DNA of 64,000 bases from Bacteroidia bacterium (GTDB taxonomy: Bacteria > Bacteroidota > Bacteroidia > Palsa-965). The position numbers and the translations under genes are program-made. The stretch spans positions 27,584-91,583 of the forward strand of contig JAKLJE010000012.1 of NCBI GenBank assembly GCA_023151315.1, read 5' to 3'. Position 1 is the first letter of the stretch; every line of letters begins with the position of its first letter. The notes under the pieces are model-generated. The model was not told where the DNA came from and did no database searches. It saw only the letters and a list, made by a program, of their open reading frames with translations. Below, in pieces: positions 12,438-22,719 of this stretch.

Positions 12438-13472
12438 ATGAAACGCATGTTTACTTACATGGCATTGCTATGCCTTGCAGCGAACGGATTTTCTCAGCAG
12501 GATCCGCAGTTCACAAACTTCAATTTCAACAGAACATTTTTCAATCCTGCTCACACAGGTGTTAAACGTGCACTGTGTTTTACGGCGCTTGCGCGTAATC
12601 AGTGGAGCGGATTTGATGGCGCACCGAAAACTGCAACACTGACCGGCGAATACTGGATGGAAAATCTCTCCAGCGGTATAGGAGGATCTGTGATGATTGA
12701 TGAACTCGGTTTCGAAAAGAACATGAGCTACAGAATCAACTACGCATTTCACATGACTGAAGTTGCCGGAGGAAATCTCTCATTCGGTATTGATGCAGGT
12801 ATAACATCGAAAGTACTTGGACCTACAGGATCACAATCATGGATATCATCTTCATCATGGCAGAATGATCCTTCCATTCCTCCGCAAATCAAAAAATCAT
12901 CTCCGGATTTCGGTGCAGGAATCTGGTATCAACATACGAAATTCTGGGCGGGCGCATCCGCTTCTCACATTGGTACGCCGTCTATGAATCAGGGGAATGT
13001 TATTGTCAACACCAGTCCGCCCACTGTGCATTCCAGAATTTTTCAGGTAGCGCGACATTATTGGTTGACGGGAGGAGTCAATCTTCAGAAGCGAAACTGG
13101 TTGTTTCAGCCTTCGTTTCTGGTGAAATCAGATGCAGTTATTACATCATTCGATTTAAATTGTATCGCCACCTACAACAATGTTTTCTGGTTCGGAGCTA
13201 CATACCGTTATCAGGATGCGCTTTGTCCTCAACTCGGTTTTACGTGGCAAACAGGAGGAGTGAAAGGTAAACCAGGAACTGAAGAAACCGCGCCTGCTGA
13301 TCCGCGAAACAGAAAAAAGCCTGTTGCCACATGGAAAATCGGATTTGCGTATGATTACACAACTTCCAAACTGAATGACTACAACAACGGCACATTCGAA
13401 GTTTTCGTGAATTATTGCATTCCGATTACGCCATGGATTCAACGCCAAGGCTGTTCCAGACTGTTTGAATGA
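12438..13472 (+). CDS. PorP/SprF-family T9SS outer-membrane protein, copy 1.
   Basis: Signal peptide followed by QQDPQFTNFNFN and NPAHTG motifs. Lies directly upstream of gldK in a porP-porK-like arrangement. Confidence 0.8.
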   Translation: MKRMFTYMALLCLAANGFSQQDPQFTNFNFNRTFFNPAHTGVKRALCFTALARNQWSGFDGAPKTATLTGEYWMENLSSGIGGSVMIDELGFEKNMSYRINYAFHMTEVAGGNLSFGIDAGITSKVLGPTGSQSWISSSSWQNDPSIPPQIKKSSPDFGAGIWYQHTKFWAGASASHIGTPSMNQGNVIVNTSPPTVHSRIFQVARHYWLTGGVNLQKRNWLFQPSFLVKSDAVITSFDLNCIATYNNVFWFGATYRYQDALCPQLGFTWQTGGVKGKPGTEETAPADPRNRKKPVATWKIGFAYDYTTSKLNDYNNGTFEVFVNYCIPITPWIQRQGCSRLFE

Positions 13473-13781
13473 TCGATTTTTTATGGCGTTTTCTGCCTGA
13501 ATTGATCGATTTTCTTATGTTCCACGCTAAATTTTAAGTACTGATTATCAGTGGTATAGCTTTTATTCACAGGGTGTGTATCTTTTCCTGTTTCCTTGGT
13601 TATATATCTCAGAAACAGGTTAAAAAGCCCCAATCTGAACGAAATTCGGCTAAAGCCAGGTGTCGAGGTTTTGAACAGATTGGGGTTAAAAAAGATTTGG
13701 CATTAAAAAATGTTTACATATCTTAGCGACCTAGTGTACCGACCGTAAAGAGGAAGACGGGCGTGTAAACACCTTTTAACT

Positions 13782-14759
13782 ATGAAGAAAAGCTTTACAA
13801 TTATTGCTTTTGTATTGGGCAGCACGGCGGTTTTTGCTCAGCAGGATCCGCAATTCTCACAATACATGCACAACAAAATGTTCATGAACCCAGCTTACGC
13901 CGGCATGCGTCAGGCTCTGTGCGGAACATTAATCGCTCGCCAGCAATGGTCAGGATTTGAAGGTGCTCCACAAAGTGGTGTTCTTTCAGTTGACATGTTC
14001 ACCCCGCAACTTCATGGTGGTGTAGGTCTCAACGTAATGTATGATAAGCTCGGTTTCGAACAAACAATGGCTTATCGTCTTGCGTATTCATTCCATTTGC
14101 CACTCGCAGGCGGTACTCTCGGTATCGGTGTTGAGGGCGGTGCTGCATCAAAAACTCTCGGACCAACAGGTTCTCAGTCTTGGATCGCTACTACCAACTG
14201 GCAGAATGACCCTTCTGTTCCGCCTCAACTGAAGAAAACTACTTTCGACGTAGGTTTCGGTCTTTGGTACCAGCGTCAGAACATGTGGTTCGGTATTTCT
14301 TCAACTCACCTCGCTGCAAATAAATTCGACGACGGAACAACGAGCGTCAACCTGATCAACCACAATCTTGTTTACCAGATGGCACGCCATTACTGGGTAA
14401 CCGGTGGTGTTACTTTGATGCAGGGAAATACTTGGGAGGTTCGTCCTTCTTTCCTTGTTAAGTCTGACGCAACGGTAACTTCGTTCGATATCAACTGTAT
14501 CGCGATGTTTAATCAGCGTTTCTGGTTCGGTGCTTCTTATCGTTATCAGGATGCGATTATTCCAATGTTGGGCTTCCAGATTCCTCACGCTGTAACTGGC
14601 GAGAATGGCGGTCTTAAAGTTGGTTTCGCATACGACTACACAACTTCGAACCTTGGTGATTACAACAACGGTTCATTCGAGTTGTTCCTGAACTACTGCG
14701 TTCCAATCAAGTTTGTACAGAAAACTGAGCGTCACGGAGACGTACGTTTGTTCGACTAA
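13782..14759 (+). CDS. PorP/SprF-family T9SS outer-membrane protein, copy 2.
   Basis: N-terminus MKKSFTIIAFVLGSTAVFAQQDPQFSQYMHNKMFMNPAYAG. It shares a conserved C-terminal half with copy 1 (GFAYDYTTS.L.DYNNGSFE). Confidence 0.85.
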   Translation: MKKSFTIIAFVLGSTAVFAQQDPQFSQYMHNKMFMNPAYAGMRQALCGTLIARQQWSGFEGAPQSGVLSVDMFTPQLHGGVGLNVMYDKLGFEQTMAYRLAYSFHLPLAGGTLGIGVEGGAASKTLGPTGSQSWIATTNWQNDPSVPPQLKKTTFDVGFGLWYQRQNMWFGISSTHLAANKFDDGTTSVNLINHNLVYQMARHYWVTGGVTLMQGNTWEVRPSFLVKSDATVTSFDINCIAMFNQRFWFGASYRYQDAIIPMLGFQIPHAVTGENGGLKVGFAYDYTTSNLGDYNNGSFELFLNYCVPIKFVQKTERHGDVRLFD

Positions 14760-14954
14760 TTCTTTAACCAACAATATCAATTGAAACTTTAAAAGTCCAG
14801 TTGACGTTAAATACAGTCCTGATTTGACGAACCGCCCGGAAACGCGGTAAATATCTTCAGGAGGGGACAATTTCGGGAAAGATTGTTCCGTTATTTGATA
14901 GAACCTGGCACAGAAAACAACTACTACAACCAAGGGAAACCAAAGGAGGCTAAA

Positions 14955-16388
14955 ATGAAAAGATTGTTGTTCGCAGGCGTTGTTGCCATGTTATTGTTCA
15001 CTTCCTGCTCACAGGAAAATGGACAATTGATTGGCGTTCAAAACCGACCGGCATGGTATCCGTTCGATCCGTACGGAATGCTGTACTGTCCAATGGGCAG
15101 CTACAACATGGGACCGTCAGATGAGGATATTCCTTATGCCCACACAACGAAAGCTAAAACAGTTTCGGTACAGGCGTTTTACATGGACCAAACGGAAATC
15201 TCAAACAATGAGTACCGTCAGTTCGTGTATGATGTGCGTGACTCTATCGCACGTCGACTCCTCTCCGAAGAATACGAGGAAGAATACCTGATTCCGGAAG
15301 AAGAATGGATCGGATACGAAGACAATGGTCCTTTGTACATCGATGTTGACTATCCTCAGGATCCTTATCGTCCGTTGAATCGTTTGGAGAAAATCCGTTG
15401 GGACGAAACAGATCCTGACTACAAAGCTGCGTTGAACGACCTTTATCTTCCTATCGAAGAGCGTTTCTACAGCCGTAAAGACGTTGATACCCGCAAACTG
15501 ATTTTCGAATACTATCGTATCGACCTTCGTCTTGCTGCGTCAAAGTCTAACCGTTACAAGCCAAAAACAACTCCAGGCCCTGAAGGTCGTCAGTTCCCTA
15601 CACGTGAACAGGGAACCTATGACGTAACTAAGAAAGAAGGACAGCGTAACGGAGTAAACCGAAGCATCTTCATCATTAAAGATGTGATCAACGTTTACCC
15701 TGATACTTTGGCTTGGATTCATGACTTTACGTATTCATTCAACGAGCCAATGACCAATATGTATTTCTGGCATCCGGCTTATGATGATTATCCGGTGGTA
15801 GGTGTAACCTGGAAGCAGGCTCGTGCATTTTGTGTATGGCGCACAATGTTGCTGAACAACTTCCTGCGTTCAAACGATGAAGCAACTGTTCAGGATTTCC
15901 GTCTCCCAACGGAGTCTGAGTGGGAATACGCTGCTCGTGCCGGTCTGCAATTGTCTCCGTTCCCTTGGGGCGGTCCGTATATCCGTAACGCACGCGGATG
16001 TTTCTTAGGAAACTTCAAGCCAATGCGCGGTTCATACATCGATGATGGCGGATTCCACACGGTTAAGATTTTCTCTTATAACCCTAACGACTGGGGCTTC
16101 TATTGCATGGCTGGTAACGCAGCTGAGTGGACGAACAACGCGTTCGATGAATCAGCTTATGACTTCATGCATGACCTCAACCCTGATTACCAGTACGAGA
16201 CTACAGTTGCAGATGAGCAGATCCCTGTTCTGTGCCGCAAAGTAATCCGTGGCGGTTCGTGGAAAGATGTAGGTTTCTACCTGCAGAACTCTTCACGTAC
16301 TTATGAGTATCAGGATACAGCTAAGTGTTATGTCGGATTCCGTTGCGTAATGACCTTCCTCGGTCGTTCGAAGGATGATGATCTATAG
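14955..16388 (+). CDS. gldK: Gliding motility/T9SS lipoprotein GldK (PorK ortholog, FGE-sulfatase fold).
   Basis: Lipobox MKRLLFAGVVAMLLFTSC. An FGE/SUMF1-like domain carrying GGSWKD. AGGAGG lies 5 nt before the ATG. Confidence 0.88.
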   Translation: MKRLLFAGVVAMLLFTSCSQENGQLIGVQNRPAWYPFDPYGMLYCPMGSYNMGPSDEDIPYAHTTKAKTVSVQAFYMDQTEISNNEYRQFVYDVRDSIARRLLSEEYEEEYLIPEEEWIGYEDNGPLYIDVDYPQDPYRPLNRLEKIRWDETDPDYKAALNDLYLPIEERFYSRKDVDTRKLIFEYYRIDLRLAASKSNRYKPKTTPGPEGRQFPTREQGTYDVTKKEGQRNGVNRSIFIIKDVINVYPDTLAWIHDFTYSFNEPMTNMYFWHPAYDDYPVVGVTWKQARAFCVWRTMLLNNFLRSNDEATVQDFRLPTESEWEYAARAGLQLSPFPWGGPYIRNARGCFLGNFKPMRGSYIDDGGFHTVKIFSYNPNDWGFYCMAGNAAEWTNNAFDESAYDFMHDLNPDYQYETTVADEQIPVLCRKVIRGGSWKDVGFYLQNSSRTYEYQDTAKCYVGFRCVMTFLGRSKDDDL

Positions 16389-16451
16389 TAGTAATCCCAA
16401 AACCAAACATAATTTAATTCCTGTTTCTTAACCAACAAACAAGCACAAACA

Positions 16452-17324
16452 ATGAGCGGTAAAAGTTTATTTGAAACCAAGAAGTGGAAGATGTTTATGG
16501 CGAAGCTTTACGGCTTCGGAGCGGCGGTTGTAATCGTCGGTGCACTCTTCAAAATTCAGCACTGGCCAGGGGCTAGTCTTATGCTTATCGTAGGTCTGGG
16601 TACTGAGGCCGTAATCTTTATCTTCTCGGCTTTCGAACCGATTCACGAAGATCTGGATTGGACATTGGTTTACCCTGAACTTGCAGGAATGAGTGACGAA
16701 GAAGGAAAGCGTGGTCGTGAACTTGGCGGTGGCGGTGCAGTAGGTGATCCGCTTACTAATCAGCTCGACAAAATGCTTGAAGAAGCTAAGATCGGACCGG
16801 AACTTCTTGAAAGTTTGGGTCAGGGAATGCGTAACCTCTCCGACAGCGTTTCTAAAATGGGCGAAATTGCTGACGCGAGCGTAGCATCTAAAGAATTCTC
16901 TGATAACCTCAACAAGGCAACTTCTAAAGTTGACAACCTTGCTCAGGCATATGATCGTGCTAACGAAAGCGTTAGTTCATCTGTTGATCAGTTGGCAAGC
17001 GCATACACTCGTGCGTCACGTACGCTTGAGTCGTTCACTGTTGCTAATGATGAGGCTTCTAATTACAGCGAACAGCTTGGCAAGGTTTCTAAAAACCTCG
17101 CTGCACTCAATGCTGCTTACGAGCTTCAGCTTCAGGGTTCAAACGAACACCTCAAGGCTACAAACACGCTTTACGAAGGAATCCAGCAGATCCTTGGAAA
17201 CCTCAACGAGTCTATGGACGACACCCGTAGATATCGCTCTGAGATTTCTAATCTCGCGTCTAACCTCGAACAACTCAACACGGTGTACGGCAACATGCTG
17301 ACCGCTATGAACGTTCGTCGCTAA
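16452..17324 (+). CDS. gldL: Gliding motility/T9SS protein GldL (PorL).
   Basis: Motif YGFGAAVVIVGALFKIQHWPGASLMLIVGLGTEAVIFIFSAFEP. Two TM helices plus a cytoplasmic coiled-coil region. Confidence 0.9.
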   Translation: MSGKSLFETKKWKMFMAKLYGFGAAVVIVGALFKIQHWPGASLMLIVGLGTEAVIFIFSAFEPIHEDLDWTLVYPELAGMSDEEGKRGRELGGGGAVGDPLTNQLDKMLEEAKIGPELLESLGQGMRNLSDSVSKMGEIADASVASKEFSDNLNKATSKVDNLAQAYDRANESVSSSVDQLASAYTRASRTLESFTVANDEASNYSEQLGKVSKNLAALNAAYELQLQGSNEHLKATNTLYEGIQQILGNLNESMDDTRRYRSEISNLASNLEQLNTVYGNMLTAMNVRR

Positions 17325-17370
17325 TAATTCTGGTATTGCCTAACAAAAATTAAAAGGAGGATACTCGAAA

Positions 17371-19005
17371 ATGGCAGGTGGAAAACAGTCTCCGCGTCAG
17401 AAGATGATTGGTATGATGTACCTCGTACTTACCGCTCTTCTTGCGCTGAACGTATCAAAAGAAATCATCAACTCGTTCATGGTAATTGAAACGGGTCTGA
17501 TCAGCACTAACAACGGTATCGACAACAAAAACGGCATTCTTTACAGCCAGTTCGAGTTGGCGTTGCTGAACGATGAGAAGAAAGCAAAACCTTTCTACGA
17601 CAAAGCGATGGAAATCCGTAAAAAGTCGGATGAACTCGTGAAGTTTATTCAGGAACTTAAGTCTGAAATCAAAACTGAAACTCAGTTTGGTGTCAACTAC
17701 TCTCCTGAACAAAAGAAGATCGGTGATACTTTGAGCTCACGTCTCATAGACAAACCGGATGATTACGATACTCCGACTCACTACATGATTGGTGAAGACC
17801 CGGCGAACGTAACCGGAAAGGCTGCTGAATTGAAGAAGAAACTGAACGAACATCACAAATTCCTGATGTCTCAGTTGGCTCCTGATCAGCAGAAAGAACT
17901 TGAGAACAACCTCAAGACTCTTGAAACCAAAGAACAGTGGAACCAGTCTGAAGAGAAGACTGTAAGCTGGGAGTGGTACAACTTCTACCATATGCCTGTT
18001 ACGGCTATGCTTGCAAACCTTACCCGTATGCAGGTTGACGTAAAGAATGCAGAAGGTGACGTTGTAAACGAGCTTCTGGGTTCAGTTTCCAAGAACGACT
18101 TTAAGTTCGATACGCTTGCTGCGAAAGTAGTTGCTCCTACGAGCTACGTTCTTTCGGGTGATAAGTATGTAGCGAACCTTTTCGTTGCGGCATTCAGCAC
18201 TACGCAGGATCCTTCAATCTGGCTTTGCGATTACGATTCAGTAACCAAACAGCCAAAAGGACCGATCGACTCAACTTCAGTTAAAGTTGCTCGTGGTATC
18301 GGAACTTACGAAGTTGCTGCTAACGCAGTTGGTCTTCAGACTTGGAAAGGTTTGATCCGCGTTAAGAAGCCGGACAATTCATGGGAAGCATATCCATTCA
18401 AATCGGAGTACATCGTTGCTACACCATCTGCAGCTGTGTTCCTCGAGAAGATGAACGTGTTCTACATCGGTGTTGACAATCCTATCACAATTTCTGCAGC
18501 AGGTGTTGCTCCTGGAGATCTTCAGCCTTCAATCACTGGCGGAACTATGCGTCCTGCCGGTAAGCCGGGATCTTACATTGTATCTGTTTCTCAGGGAACC
18601 AAAGCTACAATCAACGTAGGTGCAAAACTGAACGGAGTACAGAAATCAATGGGATCATTCGATTTCCGTATCAAGCGTGTACCGGATCCGGTAGCTTACG
18701 TAGGAAACATCAAGGGTGACGGACAGATGACGAAAGCCGAACTCAATGCAGCAAGCGGTGTGTTTGCTCGTATGGAAGGCTTCGACTTCGATCTCTCATT
18801 CTCAGTTGTATCTTTCGTAATGTCAATGAACGTTAACGGTGTATTCGTGGAGAAGAAAGGAAACGGCCCTGCGATTACAGCGGAAATGAAGTCACTGCTC
18901 GCAGGAGCTAAGCCTGGAAACAAAGTCTTCTTTGAGCAGATTACAGTTAAAGGTCCTGATGGATCATTACGTAAAATACCTGGCGTAAACATCAAGGTGA
19001 AGTAA
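17371..19005 (+). CDS. gldM: Gliding motility/T9SS protein GldM (PorM).
   Basis: N-terminus MAGGKQSPRQKMIGMMYLVLTALLALNVSKE. AGGAGG lies 10 nt upstream. Confidence 0.92.
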   Translation: MAGGKQSPRQKMIGMMYLVLTALLALNVSKEIINSFMVIETGLISTNNGIDNKNGILYSQFELALLNDEKKAKPFYDKAMEIRKKSDELVKFIQELKSEIKTETQFGVNYSPEQKKIGDTLSSRLIDKPDDYDTPTHYMIGEDPANVTGKAAELKKKLNEHHKFLMSQLAPDQQKELENNLKTLETKEQWNQSEEKTVSWEWYNFYHMPVTAMLANLTRMQVDVKNAEGDVVNELLGSVSKNDFKFDTLAAKVVAPTSYVLSGDKYVANLFVAAFSTTQDPSIWLCDYDSVTKQPKGPIDSTSVKVARGIGTYEVAANAVGLQTWKGLIRVKKPDNSWEAYPFKSEYIVATPSAAVFLEKMNVFYIGVDNPITISAAGVAPGDLQPSITGGTMRPAGKPGSYIVSVSQGTKATINVGAKLNGVQKSMGSFDFRIKRVPDPVAYVGNIKGDGQMTKAELNAASGVFARMEGFDFDLSFSVVSFVMSMNVNGVFVEKKGNGPAITAEMKSLLAGAKPGNKVFFEQITVKGPDGSLRKIPGVNIKVK

Positions 19006-19032
19006 TCACCAACTATAAGGGAGGAAATAAAA

Positions 19033-19893
19033 ATGAAAAGGTTCAGATTCTTACTGGTAGCGGTCATTACCATTCTGTCCATCAGTACTACTGATGCGCA
19101 GGTACTCGATCCGAATTTTCCTGACCAGGTTTACCTGAAGGAAAATACGAGAACGCGTCGCCCGATCCCGTACACATATCTGCGTGAAGCAGATGTGATG
19201 TGGTCAAAGCGAGTGTGGAGAACAATTGACCTCCGCGAGAAATTCAACCATCCGTTGTATTATCCGGAAACCAGAATTCAGGACCGTCGCAGTCTGTTCG
19301 ACGTTTTGAAAGATGCTTTGATGGCTGGTTCTATCACTGCATTTGACAATCCTGCAATGGATGACGAGTTCAAGGTAAAAATGTCCAAAGCGGCTATTGA
19401 AGGTCTCTTCGTACAGTGGGATTCCACCAATCAGGTGGAAGATCCGAATAACCCCGGAACTTTCATTCTTGCTCCGATCAAAACTGAGCTTTTGTCAAAC
19501 AACGTGAAAGCGTACTGGATGAAAGAAGACTGGTTCTTTGATAAGCAGCGTTCTGTAATGGATGTGCGCATTCTCGGATTGTGCCCGATGAAAGAAAAAC
19601 AGGATCCGTCAACCGGTGAGGTTGTGGGTTACCTGCCGCTCTTCTGGGTGTATTTCCCGCAGTGCCGTCCGGTTTTCGCAACAGCTGAAGTTTACAACCT
19701 GAAAACAGATGCAGAGCGTCGTTCACTCGACGACATTTTCTGGAAGCGCATGTTCCAGAGCTATGTTCACAAAGAAACCAACGTTTACGACCGTAACATT
19801 CAGTCGTACTACACAGGTCTCGACGCTCTTCTGGAGTCAGATCGTATCAAGAACGACATTTTTGTTTACGAACACGATTTGTGGCACTTCTAA
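19033..19893 (+). CDS. gldN: Gliding motility/T9SS protein GldN (PorN).
   Basis: Motifs EADVMWSKRVWRTIDLREKFNHPLYYPE and KEDWFFDKQRSVMDVRILGLCP. GGGAGG lies 8 nt upstream. Confidence 0.9.
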   Translation: MKRFRFLLVAVITILSISTTDAQVLDPNFPDQVYLKENTRTRRPIPYTYLREADVMWSKRVWRTIDLREKFNHPLYYPETRIQDRRSLFDVLKDALMAGSITAFDNPAMDDEFKVKMSKAAIEGLFVQWDSTNQVEDPNNPGTFILAPIKTELLSNNVKAYWMKEDWFFDKQRSVMDVRILGLCPMKEKQDPSTGEVVGYLPLFWVYFPQCRPVFATAEVYNLKTDAERRSLDDIFWKRMFQSYVHKETNVYDRNIQSYYTGLDALLESDRIKNDIFVYEHDLWHF

Positions 19894-19912
19894 GACACGA
19901 ATTCAATAAAAA

Positions 19913-19943
19913 GGTCCCTCGGTAACCCCGGGGGATTTTTTTT
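19913..19943 (+). terminator. Intrinsic terminator after gldN.
   Basis: CCCTCGG and CCGGGGG form a 7-bp stem (one G-U pair) with loop TAACC, followed by T8. Confidence 0.55.
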
Positions 19944-20051
19944 GCCCTTGTGCGTCATAATGCGTTCCTGAAGATTTTTTTTAATGTCGAGTGACTTTCG
20001 TCCGGCAGCTGCTTTATGCTTCTGAATCCACAAACAAGAAAGGAGCATAAA

Positions 20052-20921
20052 ATGAAAAAGCAGATCATCATTATTCCACGTCCCGGCAGTTTTGTATTTG
20101 TTGTACTAATCGCTGTTCTGATGGCTTTACCGTCAATTCTGTCAGCGCAGATTCCATCAACATTTTACGTCAAGGAAAATACCCGTAACCGCAAGCCGGT
20201 AAGTTACAATCACGAGCGTGAAACGGATATCATGTGGTCGAAACGTGTTTGGCGCACTCTCGATCTGCGAGAAAAGTTTAATCATCCTTTGTACTATCCG
20301 GAGAATCCGATCAACGACAGAAAGAGTTTGTTTGACGTGATCAAGCAGGGAATTATGGACGGAGAGATTTGGGCTTATGATAACCCTGTGTTCGACGATG
20401 AGTTCAAAGTGAAAATGAGTAAGATTCAATTTGATTCTATGGTAGCCTGGGTTGATTCTGTTGACGTTGAGGATCCGTTTAATCCGGGTACTTACATCAG
20501 AGTGGCCGTGCCGGGATTTCTGGAGTCGCGTTCGGTGAAGCAATACTGGGTGAAAGAAGATTGGTTTTTCGATCGTCAACGTTCTGTGATGGATGTACGC
20601 ATTCTGGGATTATGTCCGCTGCAGGAAAAGACAGATGCGAATGGCGAGATCATTGGATACAAACCTTTGTTCTGGGTGTATTTTCCTCAGTGTCGCGAAG
20701 TGTTTGCACGCAATGAAGTATTCAACACGCACAATGATGCGCAACGACTTTCGGTTGATGACGTTTTCTTCAAACGCATGTTCTCCAGTTACGTGCATAA
20801 GGAAAGTAACGTGTACGACAGAAGCATTAACAGTTATGCAAGCGGATTGGATGCATTGCTTGAAGCGGACCGCGTGAAGGATGATATATCGAAGACTGAG
20901 CACGATGTGTGGCATTTTTAG
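20052..20921 (+). CDS. GldN paralog 2 (GldO-like).
   Basis: Motifs ETDIMWSKRVWRTLDLREKFNHPLYYPE and KEDWFFDRQRSVMDVRILGLCP. AGGAG lies 6 nt upstream. Confidence 0.88.
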   Translation: MKKQIIIIPRPGSFVFVVLIAVLMALPSILSAQIPSTFYVKENTRNRKPVSYNHERETDIMWSKRVWRTLDLREKFNHPLYYPENPINDRKSLFDVIKQGIMDGEIWAYDNPVFDDEFKVKMSKIQFDSMVAWVDSVDVEDPFNPGTYIRVAVPGFLESRSVKQYWVKEDWFFDRQRSVMDVRILGLCPLQEKTDANGEIIGYKPLFWVYFPQCREVFARNEVFNTHNDAQRLSVDDVFFKRMFSSYVHKESNVYDRSINSYASGLDALLEADRVKDDISKTEHDVWHF

Positions 20922-20941
20922 TCACGGGTGCTTTTTGCGGG

Positions 20942-20981
20942 GCGGCATTCTCTCTTCGGAGCGGATGCCGCTGTTTTTTTT
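20942..20981 (+). terminator. Intrinsic terminator after the second gldN paralog.
   Basis: Outer stem GCGGCAT/ATGCCGC with inner CTC-TTCG-GAG, followed by TGTTTTTTTT. Confidence 0.65.
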
Positions 20982-21091
20982 AGCATTCCTTCACACTAAG
21001 CGGCATGGTGTTTCGTTATTAATAGAACAAAGCATCAACTCATGCAAACCGATACACGAGCGTATTGTATCCATTTAGAAAGGAGGAACCT

Positions 21092-22030
21092 ATGTATTCT
21101 TCATTGCATGAGAAACGCGAACAGCCGGGAACCGCAAAGGTTGTGTTTCGCGAAGTGATTACATTCATCCGCATTTTTGTTTTTTTCGGTTTACTGTTTC
21201 TGTTTACGCAGGCGTGTGCACAGACTCAAACTGCAACACGTTATCCTGAATCGCATGTGATGATCTCTCCGGAATCGCACGGTGCTACTCTTCAGCGAAA
21301 AGCAGTTCCATATCCGTATGTACGTGAAGCTGATGTAATGTGGGCGAAACGTATCTGGAGAACGATTGATTTGCGGGAGAAAATGAATCACCCGTATTAT
21401 TATCCCGAAACACCGCATAACGGATTGATGAGTTTGTTTGACATTGTTAAGGAAGCTGTGTTGACAGGACAGGCAACTGCATTTGATAATCCGGCGATGG
21501 ATGATGAATTCAAAGTGAAGATGAACGCGGAAGCTGTAGCCGCATTGTTGCAGAGTAAAGAACTTGTAGAAGTGGAAGATCCGTACAACCCCGGAACTTA
21601 CATTCTCGATACAGTTGTTAACGAAGTAATGAGTTCTGATGTAATGGCTTGGTGGGTAAAAGAGGATTGGTTCTTCGATAAGCAACGTTCGGTGATGGAC
21701 GTTCGTATAGTCGGAATTTGTCCGCTGATGCAGAAGAAGGATCCTAACTCAGGAGATCCGATAGGAATGAAACCTTTGTTCTGGTGCTACTTTCCTCAGT
21801 TGCGACCGATATTGGTTAAGCATGAGATTTATCTCGGGCAAAACAACGGTCAACGATTAACCTACGATGATATTTTTCAGAAACGTTTTTTCGGAAGTTA
21901 TATTCACAAGGAATCCAATGTTTATGATCGTCCTATCCCGGAATACCTCAAAGGATTGGATGCGTTGCTGGAATCCGAAAGTGTGAAAGAAGGAATAATG
22001 AACTTCGAAAGTGACCTGTGGCACTATTAG
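21092..22030 (+). CDS. GldN paralog 3.
   Basis: Motifs EADVMWAKRIWRTIDLREKMNHPYYYPE and KEDWFFDKQRSVMDVRIVGICP. AGGAGG lies 5 nt before ATG 21092. Confidence 0.88.
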   Translation: MYSSLHEKREQPGTAKVVFREVITFIRIFVFFGLLFLFTQACAQTQTATRYPESHVMISPESHGATLQRKAVPYPYVREADVMWAKRIWRTIDLREKMNHPYYYPETPHNGLMSLFDIVKEAVLTGQATAFDNPAMDDEFKVKMNAEAVAALLQSKELVEVEDPYNPGTYILDTVVNEVMSSDVMAWWVKEDWFFDKQRSVMDVRIVGICPLMQKKDPNSGDPIGMKPLFWCYFPQLRPILVKHEIYLGQNNGQRLTYDDIFQKRFFGSYIHKESNVYDRPIPEYLKGLDALLESESVKEGIMNFESDLWHY

Positions 22031-22056
22031 CAGTTCGCGGTGAGCAGTTGTCGGTA

Positions 22057-22719
22057 TTAATCAATAGCACGTTGGAGAAAATCGTTCAAAGGTTTCATCG
22101 CCTTGAAGATTTTCTCCGCTGTTTTCGCGAAGTCTTTCGAAAGCAATTCTTTGTCAGATAATTCTGCGACAGCAACAAAGCTTTTCAGTTTCAGAATATC
22201 AATTGCTTCATGATCTTTCGGATATCCTTTCGGAGCAGTTGCCAGTTTATCTTCCTGATCGAGATCTCCGAAACAATCTTTAAATGATTTCGCTTTCAGA
22301 ATCTTTCTGAATTCATCCAGATTGTAATCGATTTCCTGGCGGATCTTCGCCAACTCAGGAGCTGGTGGCATCCACATTCCGCCGGCTAAAAATGCTTTGC
22401 CGGGTTCGATATGAATGTAATAACCCGGAGCAATGGTTTTCTTTCCGCCCGGACTGATATAAGCCCCCATGTTTGTTTTGTATGGACGTTTATCACCTGA
22501 GAAACGCACATCGCGATAAATGCGGAATAAACTTTTCTTCGCGGTGATTTCATCACCAATGCGCTTATCGAATTTCTTCACCGCTGCGATGATTTTTTCT
22601 ACACTCGCCTCCACATCCGATTTGGCTGCTTCATATTGCGCACGGTTTTTTTCAAACCATTCACGGTTGTTGTTTTTACTCAGACGGGTCAGAAAGTCAA
22701 GTGTGGATTTGCTGATCAT
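22057..22719 (-). CDS. DUF2461 (TIGR02453) family protein.
   Basis: RIYRDVRFSGDKRPYKTN motif. Start at the first ATG (MISKS); the first codon of the track ORF is TTG. Confidence 0.65.
   Translation of the reverse strand: MISKSTLDFLTRLSKNNNREWFEKNRAQYEAAKSDVEASVEKIIAAVKKFDKRIGDEITAKKSLFRIYRDVRFSGDKRPYKTNMGAYISPGGKKTIAPGYYIHIEPGKAFLAGGMWMPPAPELAKIRQEIDYNLDEFRKILKAKSFKDCFGDLDQEDKLATAPKGYPKDHEAIDILKLKSFVAVAELSDKELLSKDFAKTAEKIFKAMKPLNDFLQRAID

Follow-up and report, generated by a model that had tools for sequence, protein, structure and literature searches.

Shine-Dalgarno sequences precede gldK, gldM and gldN, but not gldL, in a type IX secretion gene cluster of an SD-poor Bacteroidia genome

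Analysis of a 64,000-nt stretch of DNA from a Bacteroidia bacterium (assembly GCA_023151315.1, contig JAKLJE010000012.1, positions 27,584 to 91,583; hereafter the window) revealed that five of the six genes of its type IX secretion system (T9SS) core cluster, namely gldK, gldM and three tandem gldN copies (gldN1, gldN2 and gldN3), are preceded by canonical Shine-Dalgarno (SD) sequences, whereas the sixth, gldL, and all other genes of the window are not. The sites are retained with sequence turnover among close relatives and recur on gldN and gldK in unrelated lineages. We consider it fairly probable that they are genuine functional sites of SD-anti-SD pairing under selection, which would give gldK, gldM and gldN an initiation mode distinct from that of gldL and of nearly all other genes, with their A-rich, SD-less leaders. 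The sites had been pointed out in an earlier note made from the sequence of the window; its observation was confirmed, and its interpretation, a special translational regime for the secretion motor, is partly supported.

Position, pairing and spacing of the gld SDs

The SD of gldK (AAAGGAGG, 14942-14949, including AGGAGG at 14944-49) is located 5 nt upstream of the ATG at 14955, and the same sequence (AAAGGAGG, 17353-17360, AGGAGG at 17355-60) precedes the gldM ATG at 17371 by 10 nt. The first gldN copy, gldN1, has AAGGGAGG (19017-19024, GGGAGG at 19019-24) 8 nt before the ATG at 19033, while gldN2 has AGAAAGGAG (20037-20045, AGGAG at 20041-45), 6 nt from the ATG at 20052 or 5 nt if counted from the aligned GGAGG core, and gldN3 has the 10-nt AGAAAGGAGG (21077-21086, AGGAGG at 21081-86), 5 nt from the ATG at 21092. 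All five lie on the plus strand exactly where the earlier note had placed them, and the full motifs are longer than it had given.

The anti-SD used here is the standard Bacteroidota 16S rRNA tail, assumed for this organism; the SD reading calls for a canonical tail ending in CCUCCUUUCU. The five SDs are exact matches of 5-10 nt to AGAAAGGAGGTGATC, with the gldN1 site pairing over 8 bp including one G-U pair and the gldN2 site pairing over 9 nt with the extreme 3' end of the tail. Pairing energies predicted with ViennaRNA duplexfold for gldK, gldM, gldN1, gldN2 and gldN3 were -10.9, -10.9, -10.6, -7.2 and -10.9 kcal/mol with the 8-nt anti-SD, and -12.1, -12.2, -11.7, -12.6 and -16.2 kcal/mol with the 15-nt tail, respectively, the gldN3 SD being the strongest of the window. 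According to a nearest-neighbour estimate made by hand (stacks, initiation and end terms), these energies include the initiation penalty and are therefore roughly comparable with the published thresholds of -7 and -13 kcal/mol. Contiguous complementarity to the CCUCC core, spacing to the start codon, and excess over both chance and a mock window are those of canonical SDs, and by every sequence-level criterion the five sites appear to be functional ones.

The sixth gld gene does not share this feature. The leader of gldL (ATG at 16452) is A/C-rich (ccaacaaacaagcacaaaca) and contains no SD, with energies of +0.6 kcal/mol for the 8-nt anti-SD and +0.3 kcal/mol for the 15-nt tail, so that the attribution of SDs to all gld genes in the earlier note does not hold.

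Rarity of SDs in the window and in adjoining DNA

The 20 nt preceding the best-supported start codon of all 55 genes in the window were scanned for pairing with the 8-nt literature anti-SD, and energies of -7 kcal/mol or stronger were counted as SDs. Such SDs occur in five of the six gld genes and in none of the 49 others (Fisher p=1.7e-6), among which the best pairing was -6.6 kcal/mol. As a word, AGGAGG is not enriched, with 25 occurrences on both strands against about 23 estimated by hand from the base composition (44% G+C); the signal is therefore positional, not compositional. The identities of groEL, groES, topA, hisG and the trxB-like and lptB-like genes, cited in the earlier note as lacking SDs, were confirmed, and none of them had an SD in the window scan; that they are well expressed is an assumption of that note.

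The closest genome is an uncultured Bacteroidota metagenome-assembled genome with a 97% identical GldM. Same-organism DNA flanking the window on both sides contributed 17 further genes, one of which has an SD. This unannotated gene occupies the ftsQ position between murC and ftsA (locus L089, 18342-19148, minus strand), approximately 16 kb to the left of the window, and its product matched no Pfam or NCBIfam family. Its SD is a perfect 10-nt one (AAAGGAGGTG, -20.1 kcal/mol), as strong as those of the rpsU class discussed below, and sits within the 3' end of murC; an in-frame ATG follows it after 3 nt, four codons ahead of the called start. The confinement of SDs to gld genes thus stands inside the window and fails beyond it: SDs are rare in this organism, yet not exclusive to the gld genes. 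The genome is SD-poor, with SDs on 0/49 other genes of the window, 1/17 genes of the adjoining DNA, 0/33 flanking genes in four clade relatives and 0.6% of genes across 80 related loci; published frequencies of strong SDs in Bacteroidota classes range from 0.2 to 1.7% of genes (PMC7797042).

Conservation within the clade

The clade relatives compared share 82% (L093), 72% (L094), 69% (L095), 63% (L008), 61% (L096) and 56% (L009) GldM identity with the window. Across them the gldK SD is invariant, the leader keeping AAAGGAGGC, and in the window it belongs to a conserved leader block (AAGGGAAACCAAAGGAGGC, 14932-14950). The gldM SD persists while drifting in sequence and register (TAAGGAGG, CAAGGAGGT, GAAGGAG, AAAGGAG, CGGAGGT and a weak AAGAGGT), gldN1 has a GGAGG core in every relative, and the SDs of gldN2 (in the forms AGAAAGGAG, GGAAAGGAG or AGAAAGGAA) and gldN3 are usually retained. 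The flanking bases change while the SDs of gldK, gldM and gldN stay. No SD was found before gldL (0/5), porP (0/9) or flanking genes (0/33) in the window and the four relatives L093-L096.

Since neutral intergenic sequence is expected to be randomised at such divergence, these SDs are under purifying selection. The variants extend the core either 5' (AGAAAGGAGG) or 3' (GGAGGT) and share nothing but complementarity to a single uninterrupted stretch of the 16S tail, a turnover that fits selection for pairing with the tail and not for one fixed motif. This conservation argues for function.

Recurrence in other Bacteroidota lineages

A survey covered 80 genome loci that surround homologs of GldM (34-97% identity) and were picked by similarity to the GldM of the window; alignment to the window proteins fixed the gld starts, counts were made on non-redundant lineages (about 75), and a strong SD was defined as -9.5 kcal/mol or stronger. 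Strong SDs precede the first gldN copy in 15/74 lineages (20%, p=7e-13 against background), extra gldN copies in 5/17 cases (p=5.9e-07) and gldK in 6/69 lineages (9%, p=8e-5). For gldM they were found in 2/77 lineages, within the clade of the window only (p=0.12), and they are absent from gldL (0/73, p=1, plus 0/4 further clade relatives) and from the porP family (0/71). The background rate was 4/669 genes (0.6%), falling to 0.3% in a mock window at -45 to -25 and rising to 1.8% if the best alternative start of every gene is taken; one of the SD-bearing background genes, L083_11, matched no NCBIfam or Pfam family. In the 34 SD-bearing gld leaders, 4-11 nt (most often 5) separate the ATG from the last G of the core, and the SD-positive lineages fall into at least eight separate clades on a GldM neighbour-joining tree. 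The gld genes of loci labelled Flavobacteriales mostly have no SD, which fits the report that the strong SD of Flavobacterium johnsoniae is on rpsU only (PMC13000453).

These counts qualify the idea of a special regime for the secretion motor. The SDs are real and statistically exceptional, but the motor gene gldL never bears one in about 78 lineages, and the label itself is misplaced, as the most recurrent carriers are the ring genes gldN and gldK.

Alternative explanations

The alternative that survives best, although we regard it as unlikely, is that the purine tracts are sites for another factor, such as an RNA-binding protein or a small RNA, or that they form one arm of a regulatory structure in mRNA or DNA, their likeness to SDs being coincidental. 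In keeping with this, the gldK leader is conserved well past the SD (AAGGGAAAC-YAAAGGAGGC) and is accompanied by a conserved upstream hairpin, and the SD-to-start segment of gldN2 (AGGAGCATAAA) is an inverted repeat of TTTATGCTTCT, 18 nt upstream, with similar pairing possible in several relatives. Across lineages, however, complementarity to the 16S tail at SD spacing is the sole common property, with flanks and register varying freely; folding of the five leaders (-70 to +40) gave no consistent SD-sequestering structure, an 11-bp helix over the SD being found at gldN2 only; and no Rfam match was obtained beyond one to SAM-III, with 20 bits against a gathering score of 45.

Somewhat less plausible is that the SDs serve translational coupling or re-initiation within the gldKLMN operon, catching ribosomes that terminate on the upstream cistron. 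The gldN1 SD indeed lies 13 nt past the gldM stop codon and the gldM SD 28 nt past that of gldL, and the SD of the ftsQ-position gene beyond the window, embedded in the 3' end of murC with a ATGGTTAA overlap, has a classic coupling layout; many SD-bearing ribosomal genes in Bacteroidia are also operon-internal. Against this, gldK is the first cistron, with a 195-nt gap upstream, gldN2 and gldN3 stand behind terminators and yet have the longest SDs, and the operon-internal gldL never has one. Given the terminators and the position of gldK, coupling alone cannot explain the SDs.

There is still less to recommend the view that SD use is simply higher in this organism than in typical Bacteroidota, the gld cluster being an unremarkable sample. 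It could draw on the strong SD (-20.1 kcal/mol) of the ftsQ-position gene, a non-gld gene 16 kb distant, on a possible imperfect one before tatC, and on the variation of published class frequencies (0.2% to 1.7%; PMC7797042), but it is at odds with the near absence of non-gld SDs from the window, the adjoining DNA and the four clade relatives, and with the repeated occurrence of SDs on the gldN and gldK families of unrelated lineages. Finally, chance, mis-assigned start codons and a horizontal-transfer relic from an SD-using donor are effectively refuted, even though gene callers favour SD-bearing starts and AGGAGG is near its expected frequency, by starts fixed through homolog N-termini (offset 0), by the excess in the window (p=1.7e-6), by recurrence across lineages (p=7e-13), and by persistence down to 56% GldM identity, which allows ample time for decay, next to a gldL without SD in the same cluster.

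Relation to known systems

Ribosomes of Bacteroidia keep a canonical anti-SD that is buried in a bS21/bS18/bS6 pocket, and are unresponsive to SDs (PMC7797042). The closest known counterpart of the gld SDs is the extended, autoregulatory SD of rpsU, encoding bS21, in Flavobacteriales and other Bacteroidota (PMC7797042, PMC9976891, PMC13000453, PMC13000457), which is preferentially translated by bS21-lacking ribosomes (PMC9976891, PMC13000453). Both are gene-specific canonical SDs amid SD-ignoring ribosomes, alike in their complementarity to the 16S tail and in their spacing. The rpsU-type helix comprises 9-13 bp and is stronger than -13 kcal/mol, reaching about -20 kcal/mol in rpsU; gldN3 (10 bp, -16.2 kcal/mol) falls into this exceptionally strong class, while gldK, gldM, gldN1 and gldN2 fall short of it with 8-9 bp and about -12 kcal/mol (-11.7 to -12.6). 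The two systems also differ in their products, since rpsU encodes an anti-SD-occluding protein, whereas gldK, gldM and gldN encode parts of a secretion machine, neither bS21 nor bS18, with no obvious autoregulatory loop. In addition, the gld leaders are A-rich and could therefore be partly independent of the SD.

Outside the Flavobacteriales, reports from other orders describe moderate SDs (-8 to -12 kcal/mol), whose role is unexplained, on rpsR and on several other ribosomal protein genes (for example rpsE, rpsG, rpsK, rplE, rplF, rplI, rplJ, rplW, rplX, rpmA and rpmD; PMC7797042, PMC9976891). The gld SDs belong to the same strength class, are likewise lineage-dependent and of unexplained function, but the published examples are all ribosomal protein genes, and full-text literature searches found no report linking SDs with T9SS genes under either gld or por names. 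The gld SDs form a new gene class among the gene-specific SDs of the SD-blind Bacteroidia.

A synthetic F. johnsoniae construct, in which the A-rich tuf leader was given a 7-nt SD (AGGAGGU), resembles the gldK, gldM and gldN leaders in combining A-richness with an SD of 7-8 nt. Its green fluorescent protein output was slightly lower in wild type and rose more than 2-fold on bS21 mutation or depletion (PMC9976891). It differs in being an engineered reporter from another order, while the gld leaders are known here from sequence. A rise without bS21 has been described only for rpsU and this reporter, both in F. johnsoniae (PMC9976891), and the share of wild-type ribosomes lacking bS21 may exceed 10% (PMC13000453). 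In Francisella tularensis the bS21 content of ribosomes selectively shifts translation of virulence genes (PMC9578407, PMC12262407), but in another phylum, without an anti-SD sequestration pocket and through exchange of bS21 paralogs instead of bS21 absence. In motif, spacing and pairing energy the gld SDs are indistinguishable from ordinary SDs of Escherichia coli and Bacillus subtilis, where most genes have an SD by default, as opposed to about 1% of genes here, on an otherwise SD-less background.

Possible role

If the anti-SD of this organism is normally buried by bS21, bS18 and bS6 as in other Bacteroidia, the most likely gain for SD-bearing cistrons would be an extra, conditional share of initiation from ribosomes with a free tail, either lacking bS21 or holding the tail only loosely. 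Equimolar periplasmic and outer-membrane parts (K2:M2:N2) would then be tied to one common signal, apart from the 5-copy stator GldL, and the most likely role of the SDs would be to give the K, M and N components, which are equimolar, a shared initiation mode dependent on anti-SD availability, unlike gldL. In the proposed T9SS stoichiometry, (PorL5/PorM2/PorK2/PorN2)18 (PMC9170169), the SD-bearing families stand at 2:2:2 and gldL, the only SD-less core gene, corresponds to the 5-copy component L. The stoichiometric tuning suggested in the earlier note would be compatible with these proportions, and its other suggestion, regulated anti-SD availability, matches the bS21/bS18/bS6 sequestration known from F. 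johnsoniae (PMC7797042, PMC9976891), from which any action of the SDs here is argued by analogy. Whether the SD mode would boost, limit or conditionally regulate synthesis is not decidable from sequence.

More speculatively, the ring and rotor genes of the T9SS (gldN and gldK, with gldM in this clade) might constitute a translational regulon of anti-SD-exposed, bS21-free ribosomes in several Bacteroidota lineages, a possibility that we advance only tentatively. If true, ribosome composition would be coupled to the assembly of the secretion and gliding machine, and the specialised-ribosome system known from rpsU would gain in these genes its first non-ribosomal clients. Why Bacteroidia retain a perfect anti-SD yet ignore SDs is a live question, for which rpsU is the only explained client so far. 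SDs on secretion-machine genes offer natural non-ribosomal test substrates, with gldL as a built-in negative control in the same operon, and should they work by way of ribosomes whose anti-SD is free, a major envelope machine of this phylum, needed for gliding, polymer degradation and virulence, would be under the control of ribosome heterogeneity. For genome annotation, SD-based start-codon models are informative for a small and specific set of Bacteroidota genes.

Several points weigh against a functional SD mode in these genes. The 16S rRNA, rpsU, rpsR and rpsF genes of the organism lie outside the window, the anti-SD and its sequestration pocket being assumed, and a perfect SD slightly lowered output in wild-type F. 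johnsoniae, so that an SD need not raise expression (PMC9976891). Four of the five gld SDs are weaker than the helices associated with rpsU-type gating, as noted above. Strong SDs being reported only on rpsU in F. johnsoniae (PMC13000453), and the gld genes of Flavobacteriales-labelled loci mostly lacking SDs, the feature is lineage-specific and not intrinsic to the T9SS. The 80 comparison loci were chosen by GldM similarity and are not a random sample of the phylum, and background starts were assigned by rule, although the best alternative starts still give only 1.8%. The presence of three gldN copies, moreover, weakens the stoichiometry argument.

Gene content and start codons of the cluster

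The T9SS core cluster gldKLMN/porKLMN consists of adjacent plus-strand genes, each scoring above its NCBIfam equivalog cut-off. They comprise gldK/porK, encoding the ring lipoprotein (14955-16388, 477 aa; TIGR03525, 550.9 bits against a cut-off of 350), gldL/porL, encoding the motor stator (16452-17324, 290 aa; TIGR03513, 222 bits), gldM/porM (17371-19005, 544 aa; TIGR03517, 348 bits against 180) and gldN1/porN (19033-19893, 286 aa; TIGR03523, 235 bits against 85.9), followed by gldN2 (20052-20921, 289 aa; TIGR03523, 213 bits), apparently its own transcription unit, and gldN3 (21092-22030, 312 aa; TIGR03523, 209 bits), giving six gld genes in all. Two SD-less plus-strand genes upstream of gldK (12438-13472 and 13782-14759) were assigned to the porP/sprF family by family search. 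No rRNA or tRNA genes were found in the window (Rfam at gathering threshold on the whole window; tRNA scan).

The gld start codons, including that of gldK, are the same in an independent gene caller run on identical metagenome contigs, and coincide with homolog N-termini at an alignment offset of 0. An example of start mis-annotation was seen in L096 (7437-9020), where the caller places the gldK start at a TTG (527-aa product), while the homologous ATG, preceded by an SD (…aaaggaggcacaaATG), lies about 170 nt downstream. The tandem gldN triplet (19033-22030) is kept in L093, L094 and L096, with four copies in L008 and L009; each copy of the triplet has its own SD, and most other lineages have one or two gldN copies.

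Terminators and leader structures

Directly 3' of gldN1, the gldKLMN unit is ended by a very strong intrinsic-terminator hairpin with a T-run behind it (19913-19943, plus strand; RNAfold). This hairpin is also present in all clade relatives examined (L007, L093, L094, L096 and L008), and was not among the output of a consensus terminator scan. A second terminator-like site is located downstream of gldN2 (20960-20981), and gldN2 and gldN3, each behind a terminator, are therefore probably separate transcription units.

In the region upstream of gldK (14760-14954), a stem-loop followed by a T-rich run (14864-14899, GGGACAATTTCGGGAAAGATTGTTCC GTTATTTG) is kept in relatives with 56-82% GldM identity, with apparent compensatory changes (ACAAT/ATTGT against GCAAT/ATTGC). 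RNAalifold lent this hairpin weak support, partly owing to a one-base MAFFT misalignment of two sequences; it could be a porP terminator or a leader attenuator. Further conserved boxes upstream of gldK are AAGGGAAAC and CGTAAAAACGATTCTGTT, the latter present in most relatives and diverged in the window itself, while an extra AGGAGG at 14859-64 is not conserved. The gldK promoter is not defined by the TAnnTTTG motif, which is under-represented in the window, and sigma-70 promoter scans are not applicable to Bacteroidota.

Upstream of gldN2 (19989-20051), a conserved box (GAGTGACTTTC) is followed by the inverted repeat TTTATGCTTCT (20013-23) and AGGAGCATAAA (20041-51), which spans the SD and leader; similar complementarity (ATGCTTTC/GAAAGCAT) occurs in L096 and L008. 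This region could be a promoter or operator of gldN2, or form an RNA hairpin masking the SD. Rfam searches, at gathering threshold on the whole window and in E-value mode on 13400-22200, gave no family other than a sub-threshold SAM-III (SMK box) riboswitch, RF01767, at the gldM-gldN1 junction (18942-19035; 20.2 bits against a gathering score of 45, E=0.93), which was probably driven by the GGGAGG SD and was treated as chance.

A candidate outside the cluster is tatC (51912/52014-52799), another protein-export gene, where AGAAAGAAGG at 52000-09 matches the 16S tail over 10 nt with a single mismatch, 4 nt before ATG 52014 if that is the start. The gene caller prefers GTG 51912, while the Pfam TatC model begins at residue 5 of the 261-aa form starting at ATG 52014, and tatC may therefore have both a weak SD and a mis-called start.

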